From: an uncultured virus (IMG/VR IMGVR_UViG_3300035135_002447)
Lineage: Duplodnaviria > Heunggongvirae > Uroviricota > Caudoviricetes
IMG/VR virus record: IMGVR_UViG_3300035135_002447
DNA length: 64,000 nt
Strand: one strand, 5' to 3'
The translations under genes were made by a program, and so were the position numbers. The stretch's first letter is position 1; the number at the start of each line of letters is the position of its first letter. This document shows, in pieces, positions 7,867-53,600 of the stretch. The notes beneath the pieces are model-generated. The model searched no databases. It worked only from the letters and a program-made list of their open reading frames with translations, and was not told the DNA's origin.

Positions 7867-10800
7867 TTAGGCAAACACCAGTGTATATAGGTCCAAAAGT
7901 GCTTCCATATCTGCTTCGGTAACGTTACCCGTTTGTCCTTCAGCAGATACCCAAGCTGCACCATCGTATACTTCTAATTTACTAAGAGTAGTGTTGTATC
8001 TTGTGTGGCCAATTTGGGGAACTGTTGGTCTATCTTGAGTTCCACCAATTGGAATCCTAAGAGCATTTGAATCAGCAAATTTTACATATCCTGTGCCAGT
8101 GTTTAGCATTTCGATATCAGATGTAGTATTAATATTTGTTCCATCTAACGAAATATCTCCTATAATAACACTACCTGTACCGTTTGCTTGTAAAGAAAAA
8201 TCTGTGTCTGAGGATATAGTAGAATTTTGTAAAACTATATCATTTGTTTGTAAAACTGTAGCAACTAAACTTGTTGGACTAATCTTACTATTAATATTAC
8301 CTTGGGTTACAAACTCTATCTGATTATTGTTGTCTACGAGAACACTTGTATCTTCGTCTTTATCAACTAATCCTGTCAGTGGTATTTTACCTGTTGCTGA
8401 ATAGCCGTTGAATAAATTAGTTGTGCTATCAAATATTAAATCTCCTTCGGAACTTGATGCAACTGCTGGTGCATTAGGTATCTGTAGAGCACCTGTACTA
8501 TCTACTATTAAGTTATCAGTATCTAGAACTAAATCTATAGGCGTAAACAAATTAGGATCTGCTAATCCCGAAATAGTTCCGTCTTTGAAAGTCATATTGC
8601 TTGCTTGAATATGTCCTGCGGGATTGTTATCTGTTCTTAATTCTAAATTACTATTAGATGTAAGTGTAGTAATTACATTATCAAAAATTTCAATATCAAT
8701 CGGTACAAACATATTGTTTATGTCTGCTGTACCTGAAAGAGTTATATTATTAACTGTTACATTTGTTGCTGTTACATTATTTGTAACTTCAACAGATTCT
8801 GAAAATACAACATCGCCTGATCCTGATGCACGTAATTCTAAATCTGCGTTAGATGATGTTGTAGTAATAAAATTGTCCTCTACAAGTATTTCTTCAAATT
8901 GTACTTTGCTTTGTGCGGTTAGATTACCTGTCGCGGTTAGATTACCTGTTAAATTCCTATTACCTGTTTGATTAATATCTTGTGCAGTCAATGTTCCGTC
9001 TATGTTAACTGCATTGCTTAATGTTGTTGATCCTGTTACATTTAAATTTTGTGTCATTTCAACATTATTGTTGGGTACAATAACATCACTTGAACCATTT
9101 GTTGCTAATACTATTGAACCATTTACTGTGGTGGCTTCTATAAGATTTCCATGTACTGCAATATTCTGAGTTTCAAATCTACTATTTTCCAATGGTGTTA
9201 CAACGTCAACATTAAGCGTAGTAAACCCATTTACTGTAACATTGCCTGGTACTTCTGCTTCGTTAAAGATTATACTACCAGTACCATTTGCTCTAAGTTC
9301 TAAATCTGCATTAGACGATGTTGTAGTAATAAAGTTTTCGTCTACAAGTATATCTTCAAACTGTGCTTCTTTGCCGACAACTAGTTCACTAGTTGTACTG
9401 ATATTTCCTGTAATATCTAAATTTCCGGTACGACTTGTGTTTCCGTTTTGTGTAACATCGCCATTAAAGTTAAACAATGCGCCAGAATAAAAATAAACTG
9501 TGCTTTCATTGTATGATCCAACTATTACATTATTACCACTTATACCTACATTATATCCAAAACGGTCGAACTGCTCTGAACCAAAAGTATTTGGGTTATC
9601 TAAGGTATATAACAAATTACCAGTTGTAACATCAAATATGTATGCTACACCTGAATCTAACTGAGATGCCGTAGGATTCCTTTCTTCCCACGCACTTACA
9701 ATAGCATAATTACCACTTATTGCCACTGCAGATCCAAAATTGTCAGAAAAACTTGTCCAATATGCGTTTGGATTATCTAGAGTATGAGCTAGTGTAGTAT
9801 CAGTCCAAGTTCCATCTGTTGTTTTAAAGATGTATGCTTTACCAGAACTAGTACCACCAGCATCATCTTCATTCACAGCACCAACAACAGCATAGTTACC
9901 ACTTATGTCTACGTCATATGCAAAACCATCACCAAAACCGGTACTATAAGCACTTGGATTGTTTAATGTATATACTAGGGATCCAGTAGTTACGTTGTAG
10001 ATATATGCCTTACCTGAAAATGAGCCACTAGCATCGTCTTCACCAGAGGTGCCAACTATTGCATAGTTGCCATCTATTGCTACTGAATTACCAAAATTAT
10101 CAAATTCACTTGTACCAAAAGGATTTGGATTGTCTAGTGTATGTAGTAAATTTCCAGTTGTAACATTAAAGATGTACGCTTTTCCAGAAAACTCCCCGCC
10201 TGCATCATCTTCCCAGGCAGCAGTAACAATGGCATAGTTGCCTGATATTGCAACATGATCACCAAATAAATCAGAAACAGCAGTGTCATAAGCATTAGGA
10301 TTATCTAAGACGTGTAATAAACTACCAGTAGTTATATCAAATATGTATGCTTTACCTGAACTACTAGCACCAGGCTCGTCTTCCTGCCGGGCACCAACAA
10401 TAGCATAGTTACCACTTATTCCTACATCCCACCCAAATCGATCGCCATCGCTAGTGCTATAAGCATTTGGGTTAGTTAGTGTGCGGTATAGAGCTCCATT
10501 TGTTACATTGTAAATTAATGCTTGACCTGAATTGGTATTTACTCCGTCGGCTCCAACAATAGCATAGTTACCATCTATGTCTAAGGACCTACTAAAGCCA
10601 GGCAGGTTCCATCCTGTTATAGAATTAGTTAATTGGAAATTACCTGATAAGGTAGTATCTCCAACAACATTTAAGTTATTATCTATTTGCACATTACTAC
10701 TTGCAACTTTAACTTCGTTACCACTAGTAGCTCTAAGCTCTAAATCTGAATTGCTTAGTGTTGTTGTAATTCTGTTGTCTTGAAAATCTATATCAGGTGA

Positions 10801-13800
10801 ATCAAAAAATTCTGTTGCAATACTAGAGCTAATAGTAATATTGTTAAACACAGTGTTACCAAGAACTGTAAACGAATTAGGAACATTAACACTTTCATCT
10901 ATAATTACTTTGCCTGTTCCGTTTGCTCGTAATTCTAAGTCTGCATTTGAACTTGTAGTAGTGATAAAGTTATCATCGATTAAAATTTCATCAAGTTGTA
11001 GCTGTGATTTAGCATCAAGTGCTCCTGCTGTTATACCAAATGTTGTTGTAAAACCTGAATCAATATTAACATTGTTACCTGTGTAATCAACTGCTGTAAT
11101 ATTATTTGACAAATGAGCAGAATCAAATATAACATCTCCTGTACCCGAAGCTCGCAGTTCTAAATTCTCATTTCCTTTGGTTGTGATAAGATTATCTTGT
11201 ATTGTAATTTTTGTTAGATCAATACCACCTTGGAAATCCACACTGTCTGCACTCAAATTAATGCCTACAGTAACATCTTGAGAATTAACATTACCTGCTG
11301 TAAGAGAAGTATCAATTGTTGTATTTTGAAGTGTAGTTGTTCCTGAAACTACTAAACCTGCAGAAAATTCAACATCATTCAACGGAACAATTACATCACC
11401 TGTTCCTGCAGGTACAAATTCTAAATCACTGTCTGAATCTGTAGTACTAATTCTATTTCCAGAGAAAAGAATATTATCCCCTGCTAATTTAGAGGTAGAA
11501 AGATCTTCATTTAAGATTAGATTGTTTATAGTTGTTAGTCCATAAACATTAAAATTTGGAATTGTAGAATCTTTTTTGATTACAACATCGCCGTCTGCTT
11601 TTAGTATTAAATTACCTGCTGGCTCAGATATTTTGTATCCAACATTAATATCTGTTGCAAATCTTACTTGAACGGAATCTCCTAGAGAAGTTACATAACT
11701 TGTTGGAATATTTGTATAAACAATATCATATTGATATTGATACCATCTCAAGCCGTTATCTTTAGTTTTACTAGTAGTGCGTAATATAGCATACTCATTT
11801 ATCGCACTAGGTCTAAAATATATGTAATCACCAATTTGTACAGAACTTTGATCTACAACATGAGTACCAATTTCAATTGTAGTATCATTTACTTGGTCCC
11901 ATTCATAGTTTGAACCACTAAACCTCCAGTTTATACGACTGGTACCAAAACTATTGTTAATACCAACGTCTCTATAGGTGTTTATATATACTGTGCTTTC
12001 ATCTAATGTTATAGGTGGCGGTCTAAAAAGTAAATTTCCTATATCAACTTGATCACCATTTGATGTAAAATCACCTGAATTCTGTGTTGTAATATTTCCT
12101 TGTATTGCGTAATCATAAGGTTGTATTGTTCCATCACCGTTCCAGTTATTAGTGACATCAAATGTTCCAACATTAGTCATGAACTGATTTAGAGTTGTTG
12201 TAGTGCCTGTTATAGAAAGATCTTGAGTAACTTCAAAATTATCTGTTATCTCTATATCACCGTTGTAGTTCCTAATCTCTAAATCTCTATTACTGTCTGT
12301 TGTTGTTATTACATTACCTATTGCAGATGCACTATCTGTAATCATTCCGCCTTGTGCGTCAATTATATTTGCGTTTATGTTGTCTACGGATAATTGTCCT
12401 GTAACAATTAGTTGTGTATCAACTTCAAAATCATTTAAAATCCTAACTATGCCAGTGCCGTTTGCACGTAGTTCAAGATCAGAATTTGAAATTGTGGTTG
12501 TAATTACATTTGTGTCTATTTGAATATTTTCACTTTGTAGATCATTTAGTTGTAGACTCTGTCCTGTGTAATCACCATTTACTGTAAGAGTATTTGTTGC
12601 AATACTAGTCGATGTAAAGTTTCCTAAAGCAGTTAGGTCAGCTATAGTTGTTGTTCCGTTGACATTCAAATTTTGATTTATTGATAAATCGTTTGAAGGT
12701 AACAATACATTGCCTGCTCCGTTTGCTCTTAATTCTAAGTCTGCATTTGAAGTAGTTGTTGTAATAACATTATCGTAAATGTTTATTTCGCTATTTGTAA
12801 ATTCTGAAAGATATGCTTTATTCCATTGTTTAGTAGGAGAACCTAAATTATATGTACTATCAATATTAGGCTCAACGTTTTGGTCTAATCCCATTGTAAA
12901 TGAAACAGTGTCTGTGCCTTGGTCACCAATAAATAATTGACCACCAATTGTTGTGTCACCTTGTACATTTAGATTCTGCTGTAGTTGTACTTGAGGTGCT
13001 GTTGTAAAATTTATATTTCCAGATGGAGATAAGTCCATATCTCCGCTTACAATGATTATTTGATCATCAACAAATCTATAATTTCCTAATTCTATTTCTC
13101 CTCCAGTAATTGTTGTGGTTCCGCCTGGAGAACTTATTGTAAGATTTGTTAGTGTATTAAAATTAAGTGTGCTTATGTCGACCGCAGTTGTGCCGTCTTC
13201 AAGATTTACAAAAAACTGATCTCCTACTCTAAAGGTTCCTATTTCATCAGTTGAAGTATAATATATTAGTCCATTGTTAAGTTCAACAGTTTCATTTGCT
13301 TTTATAACATCTGATCTATCATTGCTTACAAGTTTGCCTGTTCCTATATATGCAAAATTATGATTGATCAAATACATAAGTGTGCCGGCACCGTCTGCTA
13401 CTGCACCTTGATTACCATAGATATTAGCAGATCCTATTGATCGTAATTCTGCTCCATATATAGTTGTGCTACCATCTGTACTTGTTCTTCCTGTTGTACC
13501 TCTAAGAGCATATAAACCTTTTGTTGCAAAATATGTAAATGAACTTAGCCATTCTACTCTTACACCGTTTGTCATTGTTACAGCATCTACACCTGGCGTA
13601 ATGAAAGTTGCGGCATGGAAAAGCATACTAGCATCAAAACTATTTGAATTTAATTCTGCTCCATCTATCCACGCACCTTTACCTGCATCTCCTTGATCAT
13701 AACCTCTTGGATCGCTTGCACTTGTAACACTACCTTTTGTAATTACTGTAATATTTTGTATGTACGGTGAACGTGCATTTATAATTCCGTTTGGAGCAAA

Positions 13801-15099
13801 ACGGAAAGCATAACCTTTATTGTTTACACTATCATAATAAAAATTTTGTACGGTTAAATTAGCAATAGTACTATCGCCATTAAGATGGAATACATCGTTA
13901 TCTACCGTAGCAACCACAGGTTCTATTATTGTGTTTCTTAGATCTGCACCCATAATTGTAACATTATTAGGTACAACAATAGGTGTGATTTCTTGATATG
14001 TGCCGGGAGATACTAATATAATATTAGGTCCTGCTGAACTTGCATCTACCCTTGAAATTGCTTCTTGTATAGTAGCCAAAGGTGTAAATGGTCTATCGCC
14101 GGGGCTAGTATCATCACCTGTTTCTGTAACATAAAAAATATTTCCGTTAGCAGTTGCAAAATTTATTCCGCCAGCAGTAACACCATTTGCTGCTACAATT
14201 TGACCATTCACTAAATTAGTGTATAAGGTTTGCCATCTTTTTGTTTGTAAACCTAGATTGTATGCTTGATCAGTGTCTGGTACTATATCTGAATTTACAT
14301 CTGCTTCAAAAACTACGCTGTCAGTATCACTGTCACCAAATTGAATAGTACCGTCAGCTGTAATGTTTCCGTCAGCGTGAAGATTACCTTCAACTCTTAG
14401 ATCGCTTAATTGCACAGTAGGAGTTATAGGAACTTCAAACCCGACTCTTTCTATAGACCAATACTCATCTGGATGATCTTGGTCTGGATGTTGTCCAAGA
14501 CTTGTTTGTTGCGTTCCAACTCTATAGGTATATCCGTCAGTGCCAGTGAATGTTTGATTACTGCTTACGGATCCATTGCCAATACTTTGTCCGCTATTAT
14601 AGACGTTAACACCGTCACGATATATATGAATCCTATATCTATTTTGTCCAAATAGTGCATCAAAATTTTCTATCCATAAGTACGTGCTAGTACTATAAAC
14701 AAATCCTTCTAATGCGAACGGTCTAGCTGTTAAGTCAAGATTGCTACTACTTTGTGTAGTTGTAATTTTATTATCTTTAATTAATATATCTTGTGTTTGT
14801 ACATCAGCAGAAATAATATTTGTAACACTGCCGCCGCCAAACTTTAATGGTCCAAATACAGATTTTATTTCATTATTTGATAATTCTAAATTAGCGTCTA
14901 CTAATAACCTATCAGTGTTTGCATTAAGACTTGCTGTAGTACCGTTAATAGATATATTATTGTCAGGTTGTGTGGTACCTTTTATTGAAATAGTATCGTT
15001 TGTAACGTCAAGGTACAATAGATCTGTTTCAAAAGCAAGATCTATACCGTTTCTTAAAAGATTATCTTTTAGTAGCTGACCTGATATTCTACCTGTCAT
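7867..15099 (-). CDS. Large fibre-like virion structural protein, 2410 aa, paralogue of 1805..7732 with an inserted FG-GAP-type beta-propeller
   Basis: Shares the N-terminus GRISGxLLKxNLLRNGxDLAFET and the same repeat motif; about 7 FG-x-x-V-x-ISGNYAIVGA...SGKAYIF repeats. Confidence 0.8.
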   Translation of the reverse strand: MTGRISGQLLKDNLLRNGIDLAFETDLLYLDVTNDTISIKGTTQPDNNISINGTTASLNANTDRLLVDANLELSNNEIKSVFGPLKFGGGSVTNIISADVQTQDILIKDNKITTTQSSSNLDLTARPFALEGFVYSTSTYLWIENFDALFGQNRYRIHIYRDGVNVYNSGQSIGNGSVSSNQTFTGTDGYTYRVGTQQTSLGQHPDQDHPDEYWSIERVGFEVPITPTVQLSDLRVEGNLHADGNITADGTIQFGDSDTDSVVFEADVNSDIVPDTDQAYNLGLQTKRWQTLYTNLVNGQIVAANGVTAGGINFATANGNIFYVTETGDDTSPGDRPFTPLATIQEAISRVDASSAGPNIILVSPGTYQEITPIVVPNNVTIMGADLRNTIIEPVVATVDNDVFHLNGDSTIANLTVQNFYYDSVNNKGYAFRFAPNGIINARSPYIQNITVITKGSVTSASDPRGYDQGDAGKGAWIDGAELNSNSFDASMLFHAATFITPGVDAVTMTNGVRVEWLSSFTYFATKGLYALRGTTGRTSTDGSTTIYGAELRSIGSANIYGNQGAVADGAGTLMYLINHNFAYIGTGKLVSNDRSDVIKANETVELNNGLIYYTSTDEIGTFRVGDQFFVNLEDGTTAVDISTLNFNTLTNLTISSPGGTTTITGGEIELGNYRFVDDQIIIVSGDMDLSPSGNINFTTAPQVQLQQNLNVQGDTTIGGQLFIGDQGTDTVSFTMGLDQNVEPNIDSTYNLGSPTKQWNKAYLSEFTNSEINIYDNVITTTTSNADLELRANGAGNVLLPSNDLSINQNLNVNGTTTIADLTALGNFTSTSIATNTLTVNGDYTGQSLQLNDLQSENIQIDTNVITTTISNSDLELRANGTGIVRILNDFEVDTQLIVTGQLSVDNINANIIDAQGGMITDSASAIGNVITTTDSNRDLEIRNYNGDIEITDNFEVTQDLSITGTTTTLNQFMTNVGTFDVTNNWNGDGTIQPYDYAIQGNITTQNSGDFTSNGDQVDIGNLLFRPPPITLDESTVYINTYRDVGINNSFGTSRINWRFSGSNYEWDQVNDTTIEIGTHVVDQSSVQIGDYIYFRPSAINEYAILRTTSKTKDNGLRWYQYQYDIVYTNIPTSYVTSLGDSVQVRFATDINVGYKISEPAGNLILKADGDVVIKKDSTIPNFNVYGLTTINNLILNEDLSTSKLAGDNILFSGNRISTTDSDSDLEFVPAGTGDVIVPLNDVEFSAGLVVSGTTTLQNTTIDTSLTAGNVNSQDVTVGINLSADSVDFQGGIDLTKITIQDNLITTKGNENLELRASGTGDVIFDSAHLSNNITAVDYTGNNVNIDSGFTTTFGITAGALDAKSQLQLDEILIDDNFITTTSSNADLELRANGTGKVIIDESVNVPNSFTVLGNTVFNNITISSSIATEFFDSPDIDFQDNRITTTLSNSDLELRATSGNEVKVASSNVQIDNNLNVVGDTTLSGNFQLTNSITGWNLPGFSRSLDIDGNYAIVGADGVNTNSGQALIYNVTNGALYRTLTNPNAYSTSDGDRFGWDVGISGNYAIVGARQEDEPGASSSGKAYIFDITTGSLLHVLDNPNAYDTAVSDLFGDHVAISGNYAIVTAAWEDDAGGEFSGKAYIFNVTTGNLLHTLDNPNPFGTSEFDNFGNSVAIDGNYAIVGTSGEDDASGSFSGKAYIYNVTTGSLVYTLNNPSAYSTGFGDGFAYDVDISGNYAVVGAVNEDDAGGTSSGKAYIFKTTDGTWTDTTLAHTLDNPNAYWTSFSDNFGSAVAISGNYAIVSAWEERNPTASQLDSGVAYIFDVTTGNLLYTLDNPNTFGSEQFDRFGYNVGISGNNVIVGSYNESTVYFYSGALFNFNGDVTQNGNTSRTGNLDITGNISTTSELVVGKEAQFEDILVDENFITTTSSNADLELRANGTGSIIFNEAEVPGNVTVNGFTTLNVDVVTPLENSRFETQNIAVHGNLIEATTVNGSIVLATNGSSDVIVPNNNVEMTQNLNVTGSTTLSNAVNIDGTLTAQDINQTGNRNLTGNLTATGNLTAQSKVQFEEILVEDNFITTTSSNADLELRASGSGDVVFSESVEVTNNVTATNVTVNNITLSGTADINNMFVPIDIEIFDNVITTLTSNSNLELRTDNNPAGHIQASNMTFKDGTISGLADPNLFTPIDLVLDTDNLIVDSTGALQIPNAPAVASSSEGDLIFDSTTNLFNGYSATGKIPLTGLVDKDEDTSVLVDNNNQIEFVTQGNINSKISPTSLVATVLQTNDIVLQNSTISSDTDFSLQANGTGSVIIGDISLDGTNINTTSDIEMLNTGTGYVKFADSNALRIPIGGTQDRPTVPQIGHTRYNTTLSKLEVYDGAAWVSAEGQTGNVTEADMEALLDLYTLVFA
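9480..10580 (-). repeat. About 7 tandem FG-GAP-like propeller repeats (~60 aa each) within the CDS
   Basis: Repeated DxFGxxVxISGNYAIVxAxxEDxxxxxxSGKAYIFxVTTGxLLxTLDNPN; nucleotide-level similarity (agcatagttaccacttat). Confidence 0.85.
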
Positions 15100-17542: not shown

Positions 17543-17938
17543 TTAGCCGTCGCCTTCGATATCGTCAGCGCCTGTTAATGATGTGTCAGTACCTGCTTCT
17601 TCAATTTCAGCTACATCGCCTGTACCTGTAAAGTCCCAAGTTACTGTTGAACCATTATCCATAGTTGCTTTGCGTCCTGCAATCTTTGTAAGTTGACGTG
17701 CTACTCCGCCGTCATCTACTGTGATAGTCATTTCACCCGCCGCAATAGCCGCTGATGCTTTATCAACTAATGTACATACTTCTTCGTTTGATCCGTCTGA
17801 ACATAAAAATCTTTTTGCAGATTTTTGTTTTACAATCCAACCAGGTGCACTTGCTGTTCCGTTGTGAAATTGTACTTTGATTTCATTTCCACCAGCTGTT
17901 GGTGGTCCAAAAAATCTTTTATTAAGTGGTCTTCCCAT
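17543..17938 (-). CDS. Small virion protein, possibly head decoration; true start MGRPLNKRFFG (131 aa)
   Basis: AGGAG SD precedes the ATG at 17938; the gene has its own late promoter and terminator. The 31-aa extension in the ORF track is the structured leader. Confidence 0.75.
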   Translation of the reverse strand: MGRPLNKRFFGPPTAGGNEIKVQFHNGTASAPGWIVKQKSAKRFLCSDGSNEEVCTLVDKASAAIAAGEMTITVDDGGVARQLTKIAGRKATMDNGSTVTWDFTGTGDVAEIEEAGTDTSLTGADDIEGDG

Positions 17939-17950
17939 TTGTTTTCTCCT

Positions 17951-18029
17951 TGTTAGAAGTCCGATGCGGGTTCTAGCCGCTACGCTGTGGGTACAGCATA
18001 AGTCCGCCTTGCGGCACACTATCTGACAC
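17951..18029 (-). promoter_or_regulatory. Four-way-junction structured 5' leader RNA
   Basis: Closing helix GTCAGAT/ATCGGAC enclosing three hairpins: CCGC-AAG-GCGG, TATGCTGT-ACCC-ACAGCGTA, GCGG-N7-CCGC. Confidence 0.65.
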
Positions 18030-18049: not shown

Positions 18050-18080
18050 AAAAGCCCGACACAGTTAAGTATCGGGCTTT
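18050..18080 (-). terminator. Intrinsic terminator closing the riboswitch/pqqA/ncRNA cassette
   Basis: AAAGCCCGA...TCGGGCTTTT stem with a T-tract on the minus strand. Confidence 0.8.
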
Positions 18081-18258
18081 AAATTAAAGTGGGTAAAGGA
18101 GACCATCCTTCAATGTGCCGCTGTCAACACTAGGTTTCTAGTCTGGACACATACCTGCCTGCACCTGCTAAGGCGAACCGCTAAGTTCCTTCGACATTGC
18201 CTTAATCCCGTATTGCGAGGATTTATTCAGCCAACCCTTATAACAACGTCTTGTTATA
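18081..18258 (-). ncRNA. Candidate small ncRNA (~180-200 nt) of unknown family
   Basis: No credible ORF; GC-richer than its flanks; bounded by a sigma70-type promoter and a terminator; several hairpins (ATAACAA/TTGTTAT, AATCCtCG/CGGGATT, AAGGA/TCCTT, CAATGT/ACATTG). Confidence 0.55.
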
Positions 18259-18263
18259 TTATT

Positions 18264-18291
18264 AATATAACATCTTACAAATAAATGTCAA
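18264..18291 (-). promoter_or_regulatory. Host sigma70-type promoter
   Basis: TTGACA-16 nt-TATATT with an extended -10 TG and an A-rich UP tract. Confidence 0.65.
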
Positions 18292-18317: not shown

Positions 18318-18389
18318 TTACTTATTCATTACGTACATAGTAACTTCAAAGCCAAATCTCATTTCTGTAAAAGTTGGTTTAGTCCACAT
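18318..18389 (-). CDS. pqqA: Pyrroloquinoline quinone precursor peptide PqqA (23 aa)
   Basis: Hand translation MWTKPTFTEMRFGFEVTMYVMNK has the W-x-K-P leader and the invariant E-x3-Y core; SD GAAAGGAG upstream. Confidence 0.93.
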   Translation of the reverse strand: MWTKPTFTEMRFGFEVTMYVMNK

Positions 18390-18409
18390 AATGTTCTCCT
18401 TTCACTTAA

Positions 18410-18415
18410 TATTTA
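18410..18415 (-). promoter_or_regulatory. Possible late promoter box (TAAATA) for pqqA
   Basis: ttTAAATAtt ~10 nt upstream of the pqqA SD; the AT-rich context lowers certainty. Confidence 0.5.
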
Positions 18416-18450
18416 AACACAGTACTAAGCAAAAGTCATACGTAAAATCA

Positions 18451-18537
18451 TTAAAATCTAGCAATTATTAGATTAATTTTGTTTATTCGGTGCTGTCTGA
18501 AAAGTCTTTTGTAGCACCAAAGTGTGAAGTTATCCAT
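18451..18537 (-). CDS. 28-aa basic peptide downstream of the glutamine riboswitch
   Basis: MDNFTLWCYKRLFRQHRINKINLIIARF*, with a TAGGAG SD 7 nt before the ATG. Confidence 0.65.
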   Translation of the reverse strand: MDNFTLWCYKRLFRQHRINKINLIIARF

Positions 18538-18560
18538 TACACTTCTCCTATTAAGGTTAA

Positions 18561-18607
18561 GTGCGTTCCTTCGCCTTATGCTACTTCCGTCCCGTAGGAT
18601 GAACGTA
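18561..18607 (-). ncRNA. Glutamine riboswitch (glnA motif / glutamine-I)
   Basis: ACGTTCA-TCC-TACG-GGA-CGGAAGTA-GCATAAGGC-GAAGGAACGCAC matches the recalled consensus CGUUCA..GACGGAAGUAG..CGAAGGAACGC: P1 CGTTC/GAACG, P2 with a cUACGg loop, E-loop GUA/GAA. Confidence 0.88.
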
Positions 18608-18611
18608 TAAT

Positions 18612-18619
18612 TATTTATA
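18612..18619 (-). promoter_or_regulatory. Full T4 late promoter consensus TATAAATA driving the riboswitch transcript
   Basis: TATAAATA 5 nt upstream of the riboswitch 5' end. Confidence 0.75.
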
Positions 18620-24120: not shown

Positions 24121-24128
24121 TATTTATA
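24121..24128 (-). promoter_or_regulatory. Late promoter TATAAATA, probably giving a leaderless mRNA
   Basis: TATAAATA-atact-ATG with no SD. Confidence 0.65.
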
Positions 24129-31172: not shown

Positions 31173-31622
31173 TTATGTGTTGGATTGTTTTGCCTGTATG
31201 GTGTGTTCTAGCAATGCCTTACGCAATTTATCGGAACCGCCAACTCTAACATTAATAATTCCATTGTAATACTCATCCGTCTCTAACACACGGCGGTCAA
31301 ATTGCTCTCTAGCCTCAATATATGACATTTCACCTCTGCCTTTGCAAAGGTAAAGTATTTCTCTTGTAAAATTTTCTGCGCCTAGTGCTTCAACATCAGC
31401 TTGTAGTCTATCAGATGAACCCCAATAGTCTCGCCAATCACTTTCTTTGTAGCCTCTGCGTTTATTTTTCTTGCCTTTGAGAGGTGGCTTTGTGGTTTTA
31501 AACTTTGCTAGTTTCTTGCCTATATACTTTTGCTCTGTTTTTTTATTAGTAATAAGGTAAACAAATCCTTCATACTCTTCAGGTATCACATCAATTTGTT
31601 TTCCTTTGTAAGTCCAGTGCAT
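31173..31622 (-). CDS. Minimal GIY-YIG (Seg/EndoII-like) nuclease-family protein
   Basis: GFVYLITN...KYIGKK, YWGSS, FTREIL, E(AREQ) and YYNG motifs; 149 aa with no extra DNA-binding domain. Confidence 0.8.
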   Translation of the reverse strand: MHWTYKGKQIDVIPEEYEGFVYLITNKKTEQKYIGKKLAKFKTTKPPLKGKKNKRRGYKESDWRDYWGSSDRLQADVEALGAENFTREILYLCKGRGEMSYIEAREQFDRRVLETDEYYNGIINVRVGGSDKLRKALLEHTIQAKQSNT

Positions 31623-35580: not shown

Positions 35581-35598
35581 CTAGTGGAGAATATAAAT

Positions 35599-36378
35599 AT
35601 GGCTGTAAACAATCCAAAAGCAAGTTTAGAAAATTTAATTGGTAGTTCTGTACCCGATGGATCAGGAGTCAATAACGCATCTCCTAATTCACCTACAGAT
35701 GCTAGATCAAGAAGATTAGGAAATCTTCCTGAAAATGCTGTTCCTACTAATGACTTAAATTTTGTTGAAGCAAATTGGCAAACTAAACAAAATCTCGATT
35801 GGAGAGTACGTTTATCTTTACCAAATAACTTTAGAAACAGCAATTTAATGACACCTTTGTTAGAAACAGACGGTTTAATGTTTCCTTATACACCTCAAAT
35901 AGTTTTGGAACACCAAGCAAACTACAACGCTTTACATCCTACACATAGTAATTATCCTTTTCCTGCTTATCAGAACTCAGCTGTGAGTTCGATGACAATT
36001 ATTGGAGAATTTTTAGTAGAAAATGCACAAGAGGCAGCTTACTGGGTTGCAGCTGTACACTATTTGCGTAGTGTAACAAAAATGGCCTATGGTAAAACAA
36101 GTAATCAAGGGTCGCCGCCTCCAGTAGTTAAATTAAACGGATATGGTGATTATGTTTTTAATAATGTTCCTGTAACAATTACTTACTTTTCGGTTGATTT
36201 ACCTAGTGATGTTGATTACATGCAAGTGCAAGTTGGACAAAATGGAACTTGGGTACCAACAAGAAGTCAGATAAATGTTCAGGCACAACCTACTTACAGC
36301 AGATCCAGTGTAACTAAATTTAGTTTAGATAAATTTATCAGTGGCGAATACGTAATAAACAAAAAAGGGTTTATCTAA
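35599..36378 (+). CDS. Baseplate/tail-tube junction protein (gp48/gp54-like)
   Basis: FPYTPQI, GSPPPVVKLNGYG and NVPVTITYFSVDLP motifs; ATG at 35599 follows the GGAGA SD. Confidence 0.7.
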   Translation: MAVNNPKASLENLIGSSVPDGSGVNNASPNSPTDARSRRLGNLPENAVPTNDLNFVEANWQTKQNLDWRVRLSLPNNFRNSNLMTPLLETDGLMFPYTPQIVLEHQANYNALHPTHSNYPFPAYQNSAVSSMTIIGEFLVENAQEAAYWVAAVHYLRSVTKMAYGKTSNQGSPPPVVKLNGYGDYVFNNVPVTITYFSVDLPSDVDYMQVQVGQNGTWVPTRSQINVQAQPTYSRSSVTKFSLDKFISGEYVINKKGFI

Positions 36379-44100: not shown

Positions 44101-44676
44101 GTAAAATATAAGATATTATTTGGTAATAAAGCAGAAGAAGATCTAAGAGCAGTGTTTAAAATTGTTAAAAATACAGATAAAGTTTTAAATGATAATGAAA
44201 TAAAATCAAAAGTTGTAGATGCTATAAATCAATTTTTTGCATTAGACAACTGGGACTTTGGCGATAAATTTTATTTTAGTGAATTGGCAAATTATGTAAT
44301 GTACGAACTTTCGCCAGATATTAATACTTTTATAATTGTTCCTACTCAAGTTTCTCAAGTATTTGGTTCGCTATACGAGATAAAATCAGAAACAAATGAA
44401 ATTTTTATAAGTGGAGCAACAGTGGACAATATTGAAATTATTGATTCTGTAACTGCAAGTAAATTAAGAGCCGCAGGAGAAGTTGTAACACAAAGTATTA
44501 CATCATCTAATGTAGGTGTACAAAGTTCATCTTTAAATGATACTGCAACAAATGTTACAACATCAACAAGTTCTACGACAAGTTCTACAACTTCGTCATC
44601 CGGCACTACAAGTTCTAGTAGCGGTAGTAGCGGTAGTAGCGGTAGTAATTCTAACAGCGGAGGATATAGTTACTAA
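41116..44676 (+). CDS. gp6: Baseplate wedge subunit
   Basis: DFKSYDFDNLR, ENYLELAERRESVLRLARLLSYNP, FSDGVFGNLP and QNRMVTGEDY motifs. Confidence 0.88.
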   Translation: MSSTDRQNRLLLTEDWKKVYQSFRNADFKSYDFDNLRRTMIQYLRENYPEDFNDYVESSEYLALVDLIAFLGQNISFRIDLNARENYLELAERRESVLRLARLLSYNPKRNQSSEGMLKLDSIRTSEDITDSNGTSLQGQTILWNDSTNENWYEQFIKILNTALPVNGTFGRPIKKSVVQNVSTEKYRFNSISTDVPVFGFDKIIDGQSLSYEIVSADIENNDVIEETPLPGNKFSILYRDDGKGISSTNSGFFAMFKQGTLDQGVFTIENPSTNQSVAIETPNINNNDLWLYKLDSNGNEEELWTKVEALEGNNVIYNNLSKDIRNIYSVLTRVDDRVSLIFSDGVFGNLPKGQFRVFYRVGANSKVRITPADFRRINITLPYISKTGKAETIELSFSLKSIVDNASVSETTESIKNNAPATYYTQNRMVTGEDYQVAPLSINQEIIKVKSVNRTSSGISRYFDLIDATGKYSTTNLYGNDGVVYKEFNDLKQTFSFATKTDIEGVVENTITPILNDTKVRNFYLDRVPRILTEDLGITWTQTTKETNLSSGSFLSGGVPVFLGRFTASILSILKPGTLIKFTAPSGQHFMPDGTLMQGGATHFGASSYKWCKVTSVEGKGTELRENGLGAVVLNDIIPTGAVLAEIKPSLANSLTESVKQEVIDQIFAQKVFGLRFDQNDTEWKLVTQNNLNFADEFSTGKTGDTTNQQLDASWLLLFQTNTETYTITFRSMRYIFESENEIRFYYDENSKIFDNTAGKVIKDKVSVLNINPKPDTPEAFTQDFDWEITDAYRDAEGYIDSKKVEVSYFDSDEDGVVDDVDIFEQIVAPLTNSSQKWIIFKKVVSNDGVEDYNYFPNNNKEVIILSTKADVRPFSEYNDGQIFYYIDTDIFEVLDQASLRLNISSDYKARQGRDKLKFHYIHAVNSDVRIDPSASNIIDMYLLTRTYDTNFRLWMNGQLSTKPLPPSSDALSIAYNPSLMKIKSLTDEIIYHPVKYKILFGNKAEEDLRAVFKIVKNTDKVLNDNEIKSKVVDAINQFFALDNWDFGDKFYFSELANYVMYELSPDINTFIIVPTQVSQVFGSLYEIKSETNEIFISGATVDNIEIIDSVTASKLRAAGEVVTQSITSSNVGVQSSSLNDTATNVTTSTSSTTSSTTSSSGTTSSSSGSSGSSGSNSNSGGYSY

Positions 44677-47600
44677 TGGCTGATCAAAACGAATTTCCAT
44701 TAGATGGAGAAACTCCAGAAAGCCGTAAGAGTGCAAGACACTTACCTAAGTATTTTAGGACTGAGAAGAATAAAAAATTCTTACAAGCCACTCTTGACCA
44801 AATGTTACAACCTGGTGTTACTGAAAAAATTAACAGTTTTGTAGGAAGAAAAACTGCAAAAGCATATGATAGCACAACGGACAATTATCTCAGAGATGTT
44901 AGCGTAGATAGAGAAACATATCAATTAGAACCAGTAAGTTATATAAAAGATAATCTAGATAATATTTTATATTATACTGATTATAGAGATTATTATAATC
45001 AAATAAAAAACCTAGGAGGTGTAAATTCTAATCATAGTGTTAATTCTCAACAAGAATTTTATTCCTGGGATCCGCATGTAGATTGGGATAAGTTAACAAA
45101 CTTTAGAGAATACTATTGGCTACCTAATGGTCCAGAAACAGTTGTTATTCCTGGCGATCAAAAAGAAATAACAAGTACTTTTTCATTAGACTTACAAGAA
45201 GCCGCAGGTGATTTTTCTTATGTGTTTACACCTGATGGATTAACTCCAAACCCTGTCCTTAAATTATATAGGGGCGTAAAGTATAGAATAGATGTAAATG
45301 CAGATGGACTTCCTATTACTTTTAGAACTGCAAGAGATTTAGACCCTGCATTTTTAATAGAAGAAATAACTACCGGAATTGAACAAGGTGTTTTAGAATT
45401 TACACTTGCTCCAGACATCCCAGACGAAATTTTCTATGTAGCTAGTAACAACATTAATGTTGGTGGAATAATAAAAGTAGCTAACCAGGAAGAATCAACC
45501 TTTATAGATGTAGAAGCAGAAATAATAGGAAAGAAGTTTTATACTACTAGGGATAATTGGAGTCTTACAAACGGATTAAAAGTTAGATTTAGCGGAGATG
45601 TTCAGCCTGCAAAATATCAAAATAGTGAATGGTATGTAGAAGGAGTAGGAAAAAGGATACAACTTGTTTCTGAATCAGATGTTGAAATATCGTTTCCTGT
45701 TGGTATTGATAAAACAATGTCATTTGACGAAGGCGGATTCGACAGAAATCCTTTTGGGTCAGCTACAGGATTTCCTGAAGACAAAGACTACATAACCATA
45801 AACAGGGCTAGTTCTGATGGTAACTTTTGGAGCAGATACAACAGATGGTTCCACAAGGATGTTATAGAATTATCTTCACAAATTAACGGTACAGTTTTAG
45901 AAATAGACCAAACGGGTCGTGCCAATAGACCTATCATAGAATTTGATTCTGGATTAAAATTATACAACTTTGGCACAAAAAATAAAAGAGTAGTAGATTT
46001 AATAGATGACTTTACTGAAGATGCATTTAGTACTATTGAAGGTAGTCTAGGATACAATGTTGACGGAGTACAACTACAATCTGGACAACGGGTATTGTTT
46101 TTAAATGATAAAGATCCTTTAGTAAAAGGTAAAATATTTGAAGTAGATTTTATTAATTTTAAAGGTTCAGGAACTACAGGTCAAATCACCCTAAAAGAAA
46201 CAGCAGATAGTAATCCTATAGTAGGAGAGAACGTTCTTGTTGTAAACGGTGATACCCAAGGTGGTAAGTTATATTATTACAATGGTACAGAGTGGGTAAT
46301 AGCACAAACAAAAAGTTCAGTAAACCAAGCTCCTGTTTTTGATGTATTTGATGAAAACGGTAATAGTTATTCTGATCCTGCAATTTATCCCGCTAATAAT
46401 TTTAGGGGAACAAAGATATTTTCTTTTGCTGTAGGTACAGGTTCTAATGATTCAGTTTTAGGATTTCCGTTAAAATATAAAAGTATAGAAAATGTAGGAG
46501 ACATTGTTTTTGATTTTAACTTTACCAAGGACGAAATACATTACCAGATAGATGATATAGAATATGCAAAATCAGTAAATTCTGGATTTTTGCGACAGTA
46601 TGAAAATCTTGGAAATCAATATCAAGATCTTGGAGTTTACATAAAAGCAAATGATTTAAGTAAACAGTATGTAATTCTTCAATATACAAATGATAACACT
46701 ATTACAAAGTTTCCTATAGACTGTTATTCGCAGTCTGGTAGACTTAACAATATAGAAGTAAAAGTTTTTGTTAATAATGTTTTAAAGTATGAAAATGTTG
46801 ACTATACATTTTCTACAAACGGTTCTAATATAAAAGAAGTGGAGTTTACTTACACTCTTCCTGAAAATGCTAATATAGTGCTAAAAACATATTGTAACGA
46901 GCCAAAGATAGACGGCAAAGGCTATTATGAAGTTCCTCATAATTTAGAAAGAAATCCTCTTAACAACAATATTGAATCATTTACTTTAGGCGAGGTTACT
47001 GATCATGTTGCAAGTATTATAGAAAATACAAGCGATTTTACAGGAATTTTTCCTGGGCCTAGCAATATGCGTGACATTGATCAATTAAGTAAAAATGGTA
47101 CAAAGTTTGTAATGCATTCTATGCCGTTAAATCTTCCTATGTATAGTTTAGTAGACAAGGAAACAAGTTTACCTAATAGTATTAGATATTCTAAAAGAGA
47201 ATACAGTAAATTTAAGAGACAATTTATTGAAACAATTGATACATTAGGATTTGAAGGTCCTGTAAAACAACACGTAGACGAAATACTAAAATCAATCAAT
47301 AAAGACAAAAATAAATCAATGCCGTTTTACTTTAGTGATATGATTCCGTATGGTGCATCATTTACTACTAACATTACAATAGAAGACCAAGACGCAGAAT
47401 TTTATTCTTTAAATACACCATTCCAACTTAATAATTTGTCTTCACGTGCTGTTACCATATATCTAAACGGTGTACAGTTGACACATGAAAAAGATTATAT
47501 TTTTAATGACGAAGGTTATGTAAAAATTACTGCAAATAAACAATTTGGAGATGTGTTGCAAATTAATGAATATGAATCAACTAATGGTTCTTATATACCT

Positions 47601-50600
47601 GCAACTCCTACTAAACTAGGTTTATATCCTGCGTATGAACCTAAATTTTATACAGATACTAGTTACACTTCTAAACCGAATATAATTATAGGTCACGACG
47701 GTAGTAAAATACTTGCATATAATGACTTTAGAGATGATTTAATTTTAGAATTAGAACGCAGAATTTATAACAACATAAAAGTAAAGTACAATAAAGATTT
47801 ATTTAATATACATGATTATATCCCAGGCATAGGTAGAACAACCGGATTTTCAAGAGCGGATGTTTATAAACCTATGGTTACTGACTTCTTACAATGGATA
47901 GGCATTATTAATGAGGATTATACAGAGCACAAGTATTTTGTTGAAAATGATTCTTTTACATACAATTATTCAGGAATGCTAGATAAAAATGGAGAAGTTT
48001 TGCCAGGATTTTGGAAAGGCATTTATCAACATTATTACGACACAGAAACACCTCAATTAACACCTTGGGAAATGCTTGGGTTTAGTGTTCAACCAACATG
48101 GTGGGAGACAACATACGGACCGGCTCCGTATACAAAAAATAATGCAATACTTTGGGAAGATTTAGAAAAGGGTATAATTAGAGAACCAGGTGTTCCTTAT
48201 AAAATAGAAAAGAAATATGCAAGGCCAAATCTGACAAAATTTATTCCTGTTGATAGCTTTGGAAATTTACTTGCGCCGAGTAATTGTAATATTACTCAAG
48301 GGTTTGATGACTACGCAATTGATGCATTATTTAAATTTGGAGATTGTGGGCCGGTAGAATCTGCTTGGAAAAATAGTTCAGAGTACGCATTTGCTATACT
48401 TGCAAGTTGGGCAATTAATAATCCAGCAAGACTTCTTGCAACAGGTTTTGATAGATCTAGACAAATAAGGAATCAGCTAGGTAATATTGTTTACACTCCT
48501 AATAACTCATTCTTTAGATTAGAAGACATTGTAGTTCCTAACACAATTGAAGACAGCCAAAGAGTATACACATCGGGTATAATAAACTATATTGCTGATT
48601 ACTTGACAAGCAATATTACAACAAGAATTAAAAGTTATGAATCTAGTTTAAAAAATATAAAAAATTCATTAGGATTTAGATTAGCAGGATTTACTGATAA
48701 AGACAAATTTAAACTGATCCTTGACAGCAGAACTCCTTTAAATAAAGGAAATGTTTTTATTCCAGAAGAAAATTATCAGATTTCTCTTAATACATCTACC
48801 GCTGTAAATGTTTTATCATATAGCGGAGTAATTATAGAAAAACTGTCGTCTGGCTATTCTATTAGAGGATATGACAAAGAATCTCCTGAGTTTAATTATT
48901 ATGAATATTTAGAAAACAACAAAGATATTAGTGTAAATATAGGAGGTGTAGCAGAACCATTCTTAAATTACACTGAAGGGCAAAAATATATCAAAGATAA
49001 TATTGTTGAATTTTCTGACAACTATTACAGAGTTGGGGAAACATTTACTTCTACAGGTTTTGCACTAGATAAAGACAAATTATTTCCATTAGCAAAGTTG
49101 CCTGTAAATGGAGGAACAACAGCATTATTTAGAAATAAGTTTGATAAGTCAGAAGTAAAAACATTGTCCTACGGTTCAATTTTACCAGACGTACAAGCAG
49201 TCGCTGACTTCTTATTAGGATATGCAGAATATCTTAAAGACATAGGATTTGTGTTCGATAACTTTGATACTGAAAATGAAATTATAGTTGACTGGAAAAC
49301 AAGCACAAAAGAATTTATGTTTTGGTCATTACAAAATTGGCAGTCTGGTTCTTTGATAGCATTAAGTCCAGCCGCAGATGTATTGAAAATCAATACAAAT
49401 TATGCGTGTGTTGATAACGTATATAATAACTTTTATAATTACAGCATATTAAAAGCTGACGGAAGAAAAATTACTAATGAAGATCTTTCAATAAGCAGAA
49501 CTAATAAAAATGAATTTAGAATAGAGACAAGGAATAATGTAGGGTTATATTCAATTAAAATACCATTAGTTCAAAAAGAACATGTAGTATTGATAGACAA
49601 TCTTTCAGTATTTGGTGATGTCATATATGAACCTGCAACAGGTTATAGACAAGACAGAATTAAGGTATTTGGATACAGAAGCACAGAATGGGATGGAACA
49701 TTTAATATTCCAGGATTTATCTATACCCAATCTAATGCTACTGAATGGGAGCAATGGAAAGATTATTTCTTAGGTGAAATAGTAAAATTTAAAGAATTTT
49801 ATTACGTGGCTAATTCTAAAGTTAGTGGCAAAGCAACATTTGATTTTAGTGATTGGACAAGGCTTACTCAAACACCGGAAAGTGGATTACTTACTAACTT
49901 TGAATACAAGACAAATCAATTTGCAGATTATTATGATCTAGACACTGATAATTTTGACATCGAACAGCAAAAATTTGCACAGCATTTAATCGGATATCAA
50001 AACAGACAGTACCTTGAAAACATTATTAACGATGATGTAAGTCAATATAAATTTTATCAAGGAATGATACAAGAAAAAGGATCAAAAAATGCATTGAATA
50101 AATTATTTGATGTTTTGAGCAGTGCTGACAAAGAAAGTTTAGAATTTTTTGAAGAATGGGCGATTAAACAAGGCCAATATGGTGCTTCGGAGTCATTTGA
50201 CGAAATAGAATTAGAATTAGATGAACTTAAATATATGTCTGAACCGCAAGCGTTTAAACTAGGAAATAGTGATGTGCTTGATAGCAGTATCTATGGTGTA
50301 AAAAATCACGAAGTATATAGAAAACCAAAAAATTATACAGGTAATCCGTTCCCTACATTAAACAATGATGTAAATTATTTAAGAAGTGCAGGATATGTTA
50401 ATCTAGAAGATGTCAAAATTAGTGTTGATAATTATTATGATATCACAAATCTTGATATTACTTCCTTATCAAAAGATGATTATGTATGGGTAGGATTTAG
50501 AAATTTTGATTGGGATGTTCTTAGATATGATATCACAGGCTCTAAAATAACAAATATAAAAACAGCTTCATCAGATCTTGATATAGGAGAACAGTCTGCT

Positions 50601-53600
50601 GTTTTGGAAGTAACTTGTACCGATTCAGTAACTGATGTATCAGTAGGAGATATTATTGGTATTGATACGGTTACACAAGAATTACCATTAGCTGATGACT
50701 CTTCATATCCAATTTCGCAACAAGTTACAATTAATACTGCTGATGGTTTTTGGAAGGTAATTCAAAAAGATAATAATAAATTATTCCTTGAAAGCAATAG
50801 AGCAATTGAAGAGATATCCAATTGCGATGGATTGATTAAGAAGTTTGTTTCTGTACGTGCAAAAGACTTTTTAGAAGCAAATAAAATTACGCAATCTGAA
50901 CTTGCATTAAAGACATCTATTTGGATTGATAATAATAATGATTACAAGGTGTTAAAAAATAATAATCCATATAATTTATTATCTACTTTAGAAAATGTTG
51001 AAACAGAAACAGATCAGGAATTTGGATTTAGTATAACAACTGATAATGACAATAGAAACTTGATTGTTTCTAATCCTAGTTCCGGCATTGATGGCAAAGT
51101 ATTTTTGTTTAGTAGAGGAAGCGATAATACAGACTTACTTTATTCACAAGTTATTGAACCTTCAAGATTTACAGCTTCAGACAACAAAAGATTTGGAGAA
51201 GGACTTGCTTTAACAAGAGATGGAAAATACTTAATTGTAGGTGCCCCTGGTGCATCTAATGTGCGTTCAAGATTTTTAGGTAATTATGATCCTACAGCAG
51301 ATTATCAAAATGGAGATATCATTCAATATGCTGATCAATTGTGGGAAGTTCTTGTAGATATTATTGGTGCAAGAGAGTCTCAAGAGTTTACAAGTTTTGG
51401 ATCTATAATAGAAGTTTTACAAAAAAATAATATTCTTGCATTTGAAGAAACTTTTAACAATTTACTAATGGGTAATTACCCCTTTGAAGGCGAAGATTTA
51501 GAAGAAGGCGTAGATCACATATTAGTTAGAGCACCTGCTGATCAATATGTTGCTACAGGACCTGGCGATGTTGTTTACTTAGACTGGTATTTAACCTCAA
51601 CAGTAAACCAATTTGATCCACTAACTCCTAGACAACCTTTTAATGGTCAAAATCCTGGTTTCACAGAAAGCACGTTAGAAGGCGGATTACCTATTGTTAG
51701 AAAAGTTGATGCTGTAATATACATTGACAGCGTATTTACTATTCCTGAAGTAGGAGCCCAAATTGACTTTACAGGCACTGATGGTGGAGAAGCATTTGGT
51801 TATGTTGCATATTATTACTATAAAGATGGAAAAGCAACTATCTATGTAGAAAATAAGTCAGGCACTATCCCACGTTCTGGATCGTGTGTATTAGAAACAG
51901 GTCAAAGTGTTGGTTCGTACAATCTTGTTGCTCCTAGAGAAAGTTTAGATACCACTGACGATTTAGGCGGATTTTGGCAATTTAATATTCCAAACACACA
52001 AGTTGTTGAAAATGAGGATCAAGGCAGACAACTAGCAGTATATAATATTGTTCCCGCAGGACAAGCAAATTCAAATTCAGCTGGAAGTAATATTTGGGAT
52101 CTTAATAACACTAATGCAACTATAGGTGCAAATGCAGTAAACAGTTTTTATTCAATACTTACATACCAAGGTGTTCCAGGACCTGCAGGCGCAACTGGAA
52201 TACAAAAAAGTAATAAATTTGTTGTACGTGCTCCAAAGACATTAACAGACATACTTACTGTAGGAGAAACAGTTAATTTAGAATTTTTAAAATTTAGGCA
52301 AATAGATCCTAATAATCCGGGCAGTCAAGTAAATAACGATCCTTATGTAGATGTTGAAGAAACTGGATTGTTCTATAGTGAACTTAATAAAGGGCACACA
52401 CTTGTTGATTTATGGGACGGGTACATTGAATTTTCTTTAGACGCAACTGACAGTGTTTCGGGTAGACCATTTGAACCTAAAGTAGGACAATTATTAGAAG
52501 AAGTAAATGGTACAGGCGCTACAGCTCAAGTAGCGTTTTGGCAAAAATACAACAATGCCTACGGTAGAGCATATTTAAAAAATGTAAATGGTACATGGGG
52601 CATCGGAAATGATGGTAGATCAGTAAGATGGCTTGCAATACCGGATGATCCTGATCCTAATTATAGAGGACCTTTAGAGTTAGGCCCTATACTAGAAGTT
52701 TCACTAGGCTCTCAAAATTATGATCCTACACTTAACATAGGCAAGTTGTGTGTTTTTGAAGCAGATAGAGAAATATTCAATGTAGAAATTGATGTGGAAG
52801 TAGTGCCGCCTGTAACACAAATTGTAGGAAGTGAGTACTTAGTATACAAAGATAGCACATTGTTTGGTATTCCTACACAGCCTAATATTCCATCAGCTAA
52901 TAACTTTAACTATAAACAAGTTTTCAAAATTCCTGTAGATTTAGATGGTCCCGAAATTGCACTAAACAATTTTGGATATTTTACAATTTATCAAAGAAGA
53001 AATATAGGCAATTTAGTAGAAATAGGTTCGTTCTTAGTTCCAGATAGAATAGATGGATTACGTATCGGATCGAATGTTAAATTTGCACAAAACGGTGATT
53101 TCTACAAAGCATTTATTGGATGTGAAGGTAACGGTACTATAAATAACCCTGGAAAAATTTACTTTATCAATAAAGGTACTGATGAAGAAGGAATTGAGTA
53201 CGATTGGGAACTTGCTAGAGATAAAAGGTATAAAGGTGTATTTGCTTCAGATCGTCCTTATTTTGTAGGCGACTTAATTTTTTATGAAGGATACTTTTAT
53301 AGATCTTTAACAAATGTTGCAGGCGACGGTACTGACTTTATTCCTACAGAATGGGAAGTATCAACTAACGATGAAGTAAGAAGTATTGACTACTTAGGAT
53401 ATGTTCCAAATAGTACAGGTTATGTTCCTGAAGACTTTGATTACAAAGGTTTGTATGATAGTAGTCAAAACTATATTGCGGACAACATAGTACAATATCT
53501 AGATGGTAATTTTTATAAAGCACTTCGTCCTATACCAAGACTTTACACAGGATTTGTTGATGTAAACGGAACTATAGAATATCCTGAATTAGATTGGGAA

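Follow-up and report, generated by a model that had tools for sequence, protein, structure and literature searches.

On its minus strand, the window (the whole stretch of viral DNA analyzed here, 64,000 nucleotides long) carries a type-1 glutamine riboswitch directly followed by a 28-codon gene, and the gating of this real micropeptide by the switch is well supported. The favored reading, with a probability of about 0.7, is a late unit of a methylotroph phage in which a phage-borne glutamine switch gates a selected micropeptide acting in trans. The aptamer family and its occurrence in phages are known; the cargo peptide and its repeated tie to pqqA seem to be new.

This unit is very small and lies behind the head genes, comprising the late-promoter-like octamer TATAAATA, the riboswitch, and the 28-codon gene. 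The bases 3' of helix P1, including a conserved C that is paired in the glutamine-bound aptamer, serve as the 5' arm of a two-tier hairpin, pairing part of the Shine-Dalgarno sequence (SD) and the entire spacer before the AUG. If the switch works like that of the gifB leader, bound glutamine would open the base of this hairpin and allow ribosomes to start, and the peptide would be made when the glutamine level of the infected cell is high. The product is a selected micropeptide, strongly basic and folded as one helix, whose near-invariant Cys8 stands between aromatic residues; it would act in trans.

The window comes from a T4-like giant phage, of which it represents the head module. Its ORFs encode a Gp23-type capsid protein (330 bits) along with portal, head protease, and baseplate proteins of the T4 type, and the closest isolates by capsid protein are giant phages (65-70% identity). 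Among its ORFs are some of 5363, 2410, and 1975 codons. The stretch is contained in metagenomes of 15 studies, and the record closest to it is a 19.8-kb fragment that lacks the switch. According to the Rfam match and the ORF listing, the segment 18451..18607 covers the aptamer, the platform, and the micropeptide ORF (Table 1).

Table 1. Features of the window considered in the text.
Feature	Position	Strand	Remarks
TATAAATA, T4-type late-promoter-like octamer	18612..18619	-	3' end 6 nt upstream of P1
Type-1 glutamine riboswitch aptamer	18607..18560	-	RF01739, 49.2 bits, E 9.1e-08
Platform hairpin	18539..18564	-	MFE folds and covariation
28-codon ORF, basic helical micropeptide MDNFTLWCYKRLFRQHRINKINLIIARF	18537..18451	-	ATG 18537, stop 18453..18451
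ACACUU in codons 5-6	18520..18525	-	Pairs with AAGUGU 18544..18539, encloses the AUG
pqqA, 23 codons, own SD GAAAGGAG (18403..18396)	18389..18318	-	61 nt 3' of the micropeptide gene
2410-codon ORF with FG-GAP repeats	7867-15099	-	
SegE-like GIY-YIG homing endonuclease gene	31176-31622	-	
5363-codon ORF	44676-60767	+	

Aptamer and expression platform

An Rfam scan of the whole window at the gathering threshold returned two matches in all, RF01739 and freshwater-2 RNA. The former bears out the glutamine riboswitch of the original prediction: on the minus strand, the full-length model (positions 1-53 of 53) is matched well above its cut-off of 35. Three helices, P1-P3, surround the conserved core CGUUCA..GGACGGAAGUAG..CGAAGGAACGC, the arrangement of a type-1 glutamine riboswitch; P1 is formed by CGUUC (18605..18601) and GAACG (18568..18564) of the minus strand. 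In 76 related sequences among the matches listed, all three helices are 100% paired, with double changes in P2 (CG 69, UA 7) and in P3 (CG 56, GC 17, AU 3). Judged from its sequence, the window RNA is a genuine member of the class.

The octamer TATAAATA, the T4 late-promoter core, is rarer in the window than expected, with 4 copies (18612-18619, 24121-24128, 35592-35599, and 53138-53145) against 11.3; three of the four are situated directly ahead of co-oriented genes, as T4-type late promoters would be. The same octamer is used as the late-promoter core in the available text of Buchholz 2022 (PMC9004378). The copy preceding the riboswitch presumably acts as a promoter.

Downstream of the core, the aptamer runs into the two-tier platform hairpin. 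Its outer helix pairs GCACUU (18564..18559) with AAGUGU (18544..18539) of the minus strand; its first two bases are the last one of P1 (G18564) and C 18563, which is conserved. The inner helix joins CCU (18556..18554) to AGG (18549..18547). Since the latter belongs to the SD AGGAG (18549..18545), the SD has three of its five bases paired; the remaining ones lie in the internal loop, and the spacer before the AUG makes up the 3' arm. The hairpin is present in the MFE structure of 18610..18500 (z -3.19). The platform alone folds at a predicted -9.5 kcal/mol and, deprived of G18564 and C18563, at -4.9 kcal/mol. In the MFE structures of all 22 distinct family platforms among the matches listed, at least two of four SD bases are paired.

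The comparative evidence comes from an alignment of 76 of the 93 distinct aptamer-to-AUG sequences among the matches listed (the 17 excluded ones being 6 whose cargo is DUF4278-like, 1 from a truncated locus, and 10 that have a GTG start or a platform of another design). The outer helix is 98.7% paired across these 76 sequences, with the free evidence confined to the two inner pairs and the 3' arm because GCAC of the 5' arm was fixed by the search pattern. One outer-helix pair appears as UA in 45, CG in 24, UG in 5, and otherwise in 2 of these relatives, and the adjoining pair as UG in 43, UA in 21, CG in 10, otherwise in 1, and as a gap in 1; since the loci are related, these counts are cells rather than independent events. 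The covariation score was reached by none of 500 shuffles, and slid controls were 28-54% paired. The hairpin burying the SD, predicted from the letters of the window, is present as described, with three of five SD bases paired and the outer helix covarying. In its design, the control is translational, as had been predicted.

A second helix had been proposed as an alternative, in which AAGUGU pairs with ACACUU and encloses the AUG. This helix does exist in the window and forms in the fold model once the aptamer is fixed. It is not a conserved element, being complete (6/6 pairs) in only 5 of the 29 distinct family members among the matches listed, with 5/6 pairs in 11 and four or fewer in 13, and it may be incidental.

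In nearest-neighbor modeling, which ignores tertiary pairing, the probability that the SD of the window is unpaired amounts to 0.41 in the free RNA vs. 0.34 with the aptamer and C18563 fixed, so that the model shows no clear opening in the window. Over the family, the same modeling, likewise ignoring tertiary pairing, gives an unpaired fraction for the SD-to-AUG segment rising from 0.36 to 0.44 (up in 26/31), the SD itself staying at 0.40 throughout. The direction of switching, ON with glutamine, is adopted from gifB and is expected here by analogy. In the gifB model, as given in the available text of Klahn 2018 (PMC6212724), a helix joins the C after P1 and its neighbors to the ribosome-binding site and is melted by glutamine.

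The micropeptide gene and its family

Scanning IMG/VR with the conserved aptamer core yielded at least 120 loci; together with the window and Melnitz-1, 122 copies were examined. In nearly all of these copies among the matches listed, an SD-led ORF starts 21-28 nt downstream of the switch, and the SD, the spacing, and the AUG are kept directly 3' of it. The first ORFs behind the 122 switches among the matches listed fall into several families: 41 ORFs, encoding 31 distinct peptides, are of the window kind, 29 belong to a GTSGY kind of 64 residues (and 4 more by eye among the unclassified), 20 to an SRPR kind of 50 residues, and 8 are DUF4278-like; 20 are unclassified, 3 are cut by the contig end, and 1 copy is without an ORF. 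The ~64-residue family, found behind the same switch and platform, is distinguished by an invariant G-T-x-G motif (phrog_32989), and the ~50-residue family in the same setting ends in ..PRLQKI (both in loci L004-L123). Profile comparison of the window family with these two large families gave probabilities of 3.6% and 0.3%, so neither is related to it by this measure. Switch and ORF occur as a unit in various settings, downstream of capsid genes, tmRNAs, tRNAs, and other genes, and in many loci a separate promoter comes next; therefore, there is no other cargo in those loci.

The window family consists of basic helical peptides of 28-38 residues with an aromatic-Cys-aromatic signature. An alignment of 30 of its 31 distinct peptides and that of locus L105, from which the in-frame pqqA fusion L075 was excluded, is free of gaps over 27 residues; Cys8 is found in at least 90% of the members, preceded by Trp or Tyr at position 7, and positions 4 and 9 are aromatic. 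The peptides carry a net charge of +3 to +8 (pI 9.4-11.6) and are not hydrophobic; the structure model predicts a single helix over residues 3-31 (pLDDT 91.7).

The first 27 codons were compared among 29 distinct DNA sequences, three pqqA-overlapping copies having been dropped. In the frame of the ORF, 1407 of the single-base codon differences are synonymous vs. 1792 non-synonymous, a synonymous fraction of 0.44; in the other five frames, this fraction is 0.12-0.29, and 23-29 of the 29 sequences contain stops. The ORF is a real, conserved gene under coding selection. The basic 28-residue peptide of the original prediction is, accordingly, encoded by a genuine gene with a synonymous excess in its own frame, and its conservation behind homologous riboswitches, the check proposed at the time, was found in the 41 of 122 copies among the matches listed that the family follows.

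A profile search of 1.84 billion representative proteins recovered 12 clusters at E <=0.001, all of 29-72 aa, originating from metagenome contigs only and labeled hypothetical or left without a label. The possibility that the peptide is a detached piece of a larger protein was considered and rejected: none of the 12 clusters is fused to a larger domain. One metagenomic cluster (P0010, 72 aa) holds a tandem double copy of the peptide in one frame. Searches of Pfam, NCBIfam, and PHROGs gave nothing credible for the peptide, and the hits among solved structures were chance matches. Contigs of four RNA-library runs leave the ORF uncovered, which cannot show its absence; aptamers of relatives matched 18548..18607. 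The peptide is undescribed in the main texts of the literature reporting phage copies of the riboswitch.

Linkage to pqqA, host, and possible function

The most concrete clue to the function of the peptide is its link to pqqA. The neighboring gene in the window matches PF08042 (44.6 bits, cut-off 21.1) and TIGR02107 (46.9 bits, cut-off 20), and its product contains ..FEVTMY.., in which Tyr follows Glu at a distance of four residues. Such a Glu-X3-Tyr pair is the one cross-linked to form PQQ. The PqqA core motif occurs in at least 125 genome loci, nearly all of those listed being from Methylophilaceae or close relatives, and the best match among those listed is identical in 21 of 22 residues. 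Judged from the pqqA type, the hosts are probably Methylophilaceae, a family of methanol-using bacteria. Neither radical-SAM nor pqqB-E genes were found among the 26 window ORFs scanned. The same pqqA DNA is also present, without annotation, in the phages P19250A, Venkman, and MEP301. In one RNA-library run, a 40-nt contig over pqqA (18360-18392) reached a depth of ~25000; it may stem from host or phage pqqA.

RF01739 was found in none of 151 sampled Methylophilaceae genomes, and it was equally absent from a phylum-wide sample comprising 151 genomes and from the genome of Candidatus Methylopumilus universalis. The available text of Buchholz 2022 (PMC9004378) agrees with the absence of the riboswitch from the host lineage. 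The glutamine sensor is phage-borne in the Methylophilaceae lineage.

Among the matches listed, 11 of the 122 copies have a pqqA of the same strand no more than 500 nt away (8 downstream, including the window, and 3 upstream), whereas 30 of the 41 window-family copies have none within this distance. Viewed from the other side, the switch precedes pqqA in only 3 and follows it in 1 of the 119 distinct viral pqqA loci. A targeted scan, complete in its listing, returned four contigs with the spacing of the window, all with a 61-nt gap. A compact spacing from switch to pqqA was seen in 74 contigs (complete list), in all of which the small ORF overlaps pqqA (by 4 nt in 2, 11 nt in 50, 31 nt in 11, and 34 nt in 2) or is fused to it in frame (9). 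The ORFs of this compact class are probably homologous to the window peptide, as suggested by profile alignment (hhalign probability 86%, E 5e-06) with the Cys aligned. In the complete genome of Melnitz-1, a PqqA-like ORF (31.6 bits) is located ~30 kb from the switch. The linkage of the family to pqqA is far above chance, though not always present; it may reflect neighborhood alone.

Between 18625 and 18081, no terminator-like site was found, and read-through into pqqA is therefore possible. The motif TTTAAATA is located upstream of pqqA at 18417..18410 and recurs in related loci on reading of their flanks. As a general late-promoter motif before viral pqqA, it was rejected: it occurs in only 5 of 112 loci vs. 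1 in a control region. Because of this low count, an own promoter for the pqqA of the window is backed by few related loci.

Farther downstream on the minus strand, a strong sigma-70-like promoter (18291..18264; TTGACA, 16 nt, TATATT) is followed by a manA-like RNA (18256..18086; 43.9 bits, below the cut-off of 55.2) and an intrinsic terminator (18080..18051). The relatives L054, L018, and L014 score above the cut-off (62-81 bits), and contigs of four RNA libraries span ~18073..18235, over the manA-like RNA, which resembles an independent small RNA more than a leader. The freshwater-2 RNA (18018..17936, 75.2 bits) runs into the start codon of a 131-residue gene (17938..17543).

In 74 phage contigs, probable homologs of the peptide overlap pqqA or are fused to it. 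The leading, though tentative, guess for the target is that the peptide, like the adjoining pqqA, serves the supply of PQQ for methanol oxidation, tuned to the nitrogen status of the cell. Equally tentative is a broader picture of a sensor-effector pair, where the switch absent from the host would drive a helix re-tuning metabolism late in infection, acting either on PQQ and methanol together with pqqA or as a brake on glutamine synthetase (GS) through a fold other than that of IF7/IF17.

The small ORF might instead be mainly a cis-acting leader, its glutamine-gated translation being coupled to pqqA and PqqA being the regulated product. The compact cassettes invite this thought, inasmuch as the ORF overlaps or fuses with pqqA in 74/74 of them, with the SD and start of pqqA sitting within its last codons, and in the window they are not separated by a terminator. 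In the latter and its four closest relatives, however, a 61-nt gap replaces the overlap with the pqqA start and pqqA has a strong SD of its own, while TTTAAATA ahead of it would suit a separate start; moreover, the amino-acid sequence of the ORF is selected even without pqqA downstream, and the fold of 18540..18375 lacks significant long-range pairing (z -1.86). A leader role for the ORF is, on this balance, unlikely.

The original prediction went further in another direction, presenting the peptide as a possible mimic of the glutamine-synthetase inactivators: a functional analog of IF7/IF17 which, made at high glutamine, would bind and shut off the type-I GS of the host. Its background was right, as the riboswitch class activates gifB (IF17) in cyanobacteria according to the available text of Klahn 2018 (PMC6212724), and phage copies are known from that of Buchholz 2022 (PMC9004378). 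The regulatory position is that of gifB in the former source, and the peptide is small and strongly basic, within the range of charge and pI given above. Being placed directly behind a glutamine riboswitch is, however, a position in common with IF17 and not homology. A target exists, too: GS is encoded in 6 of 6 searched genomes with the pqqA type of the window (G002-G007), among them small ones of 1.1-1.3 Mb; in one of the six, the complete genome of Candidatus Methylopumilus universalis, it is a type-I GS of 469 residues. This is at odds with the statement in the available text of Buchholz 2022 (PMC9004378) that the Melnitz host is without glnA, which would count against the idea; the genomes searched are those of relatives, not of the published strain.

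The mimicry itself found no support. No DUF4278 match was obtained in any of the 31 family members at E up to 10, and hhalign gave a probability of 0.04% against the DUF4278-like ORFs that other phages carry downstream of this switch, recognizable in 8 of the 122 copies among the matches listed. The profile search of solved chains returned chance hits only, with neither IF7 nor a GS complex among them. GlnE, three PII-family members, and an NtrB-like kinase beside glnA are encoded in the Methylopumilus genome, so the host is already equipped with a classical GS brake. In the flanks inspected, no nitrogen-metabolism gene stands beside the family; the only genetic association found is with pqqA. 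The role of a GS mimic is unsupported, though not refuted, and we consider it improbable.

It is very improbable that the switch controls something else, whether downstream RNA genes by read-through or an adjacent tmRNA as proposed for Melnitz, or that the ORF is a conserved by-product: the available text of Buchholz 2022 (PMC9004378) does take the Melnitz copy as a part of ssrA controlling it, and the Melnitz-1 record has the aptamer inside the tmRNA feature with the ORF unannotated, but the switch lies 3' of the tmRNA and not ahead of it, most copies among the matches listed have no tmRNA nearby, and both the start signals kept directly behind the switch and the coding selection in the ORF frame argue for the micropeptide gene as the cargo.

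Comparison with known systems

The gated, trans-acting micropeptide favored here has counterparts in several systems. On the side of pqqA, the phages of Lake Baikal methylotrophs (Coutinho 2020, bioRxiv 10.1101/2020.04.02.019802) also bear this gene, read there as an auxiliary gene supporting methanol dehydrogenase; unlike in the window, no riboswitch or partner micropeptide is linked to it in the available text. On the side of the peptide, the downstream-peptide and DUF4278 ORFs of marine picocyanobacteria (available texts of Weinberg 2010, PMC2864571, and Klahn 2018) are likewise short, directly follow a glutamine aptamer, and were recognized by synonymous changes. They differ from the window family in carrying a YRG motif instead of aromatic-Cys-aromatic, in belonging mostly to another aptamer subtype, and in being cellular rather than phage-borne.

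The gifB (IF17) leader of Synechocystis sp. PCC 6803 (available text of PMC6212724) shares with the window the aptamer family and a small protein as the cargo. In both, bases 3' of P1 pair with the ribosome-binding region, and the ON response to glutamine would be expected in the window by this likeness. The cargo of the window is, in contrast, an unrelated 28-residue peptide without DUF4278, carried by a phage of Methylophilaceae-type hosts. In cyanobacteria, the glutamine riboswitch has its one established job, which is to turn on the GS inhibitor IF17; the window has this sensor on a phage of unrelated methanol-using bacteria, which are themselves without it, and there it drives a different micropeptide. 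Were the target of the latter identified, this would show in what way a virus reads the nitrogen state of its host and acts on it with ~250 bases of DNA.

The closest counterpart is the OM43 myophage Melnitz, which infects a methylotrophic host clade (available text of Buchholz 2022, PMC9004378): its aptamer and platform are ~85% identical to those of the window, and the same peptide family (MTLYQQWCY...) follows the switch. The Melnitz-1 record MZ577095.1 (locus L001, 2503-2672; record 74888-74944) leaves the 32-codon family member without annotation and places a CDS on the other strand instead. The available text of Buchholz 2022 reads the element as an ssrA 3' domain controlling tmRNA and leaves the ORF unmentioned; the unit of the window, for its part, is in the head module beside pqqA and not behind a tmRNA. 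The favored reading would correct the published one of the Melnitz riboswitch as tmRNA control, and the question is directly testable, since Melnitz and its OM43 host can be grown.
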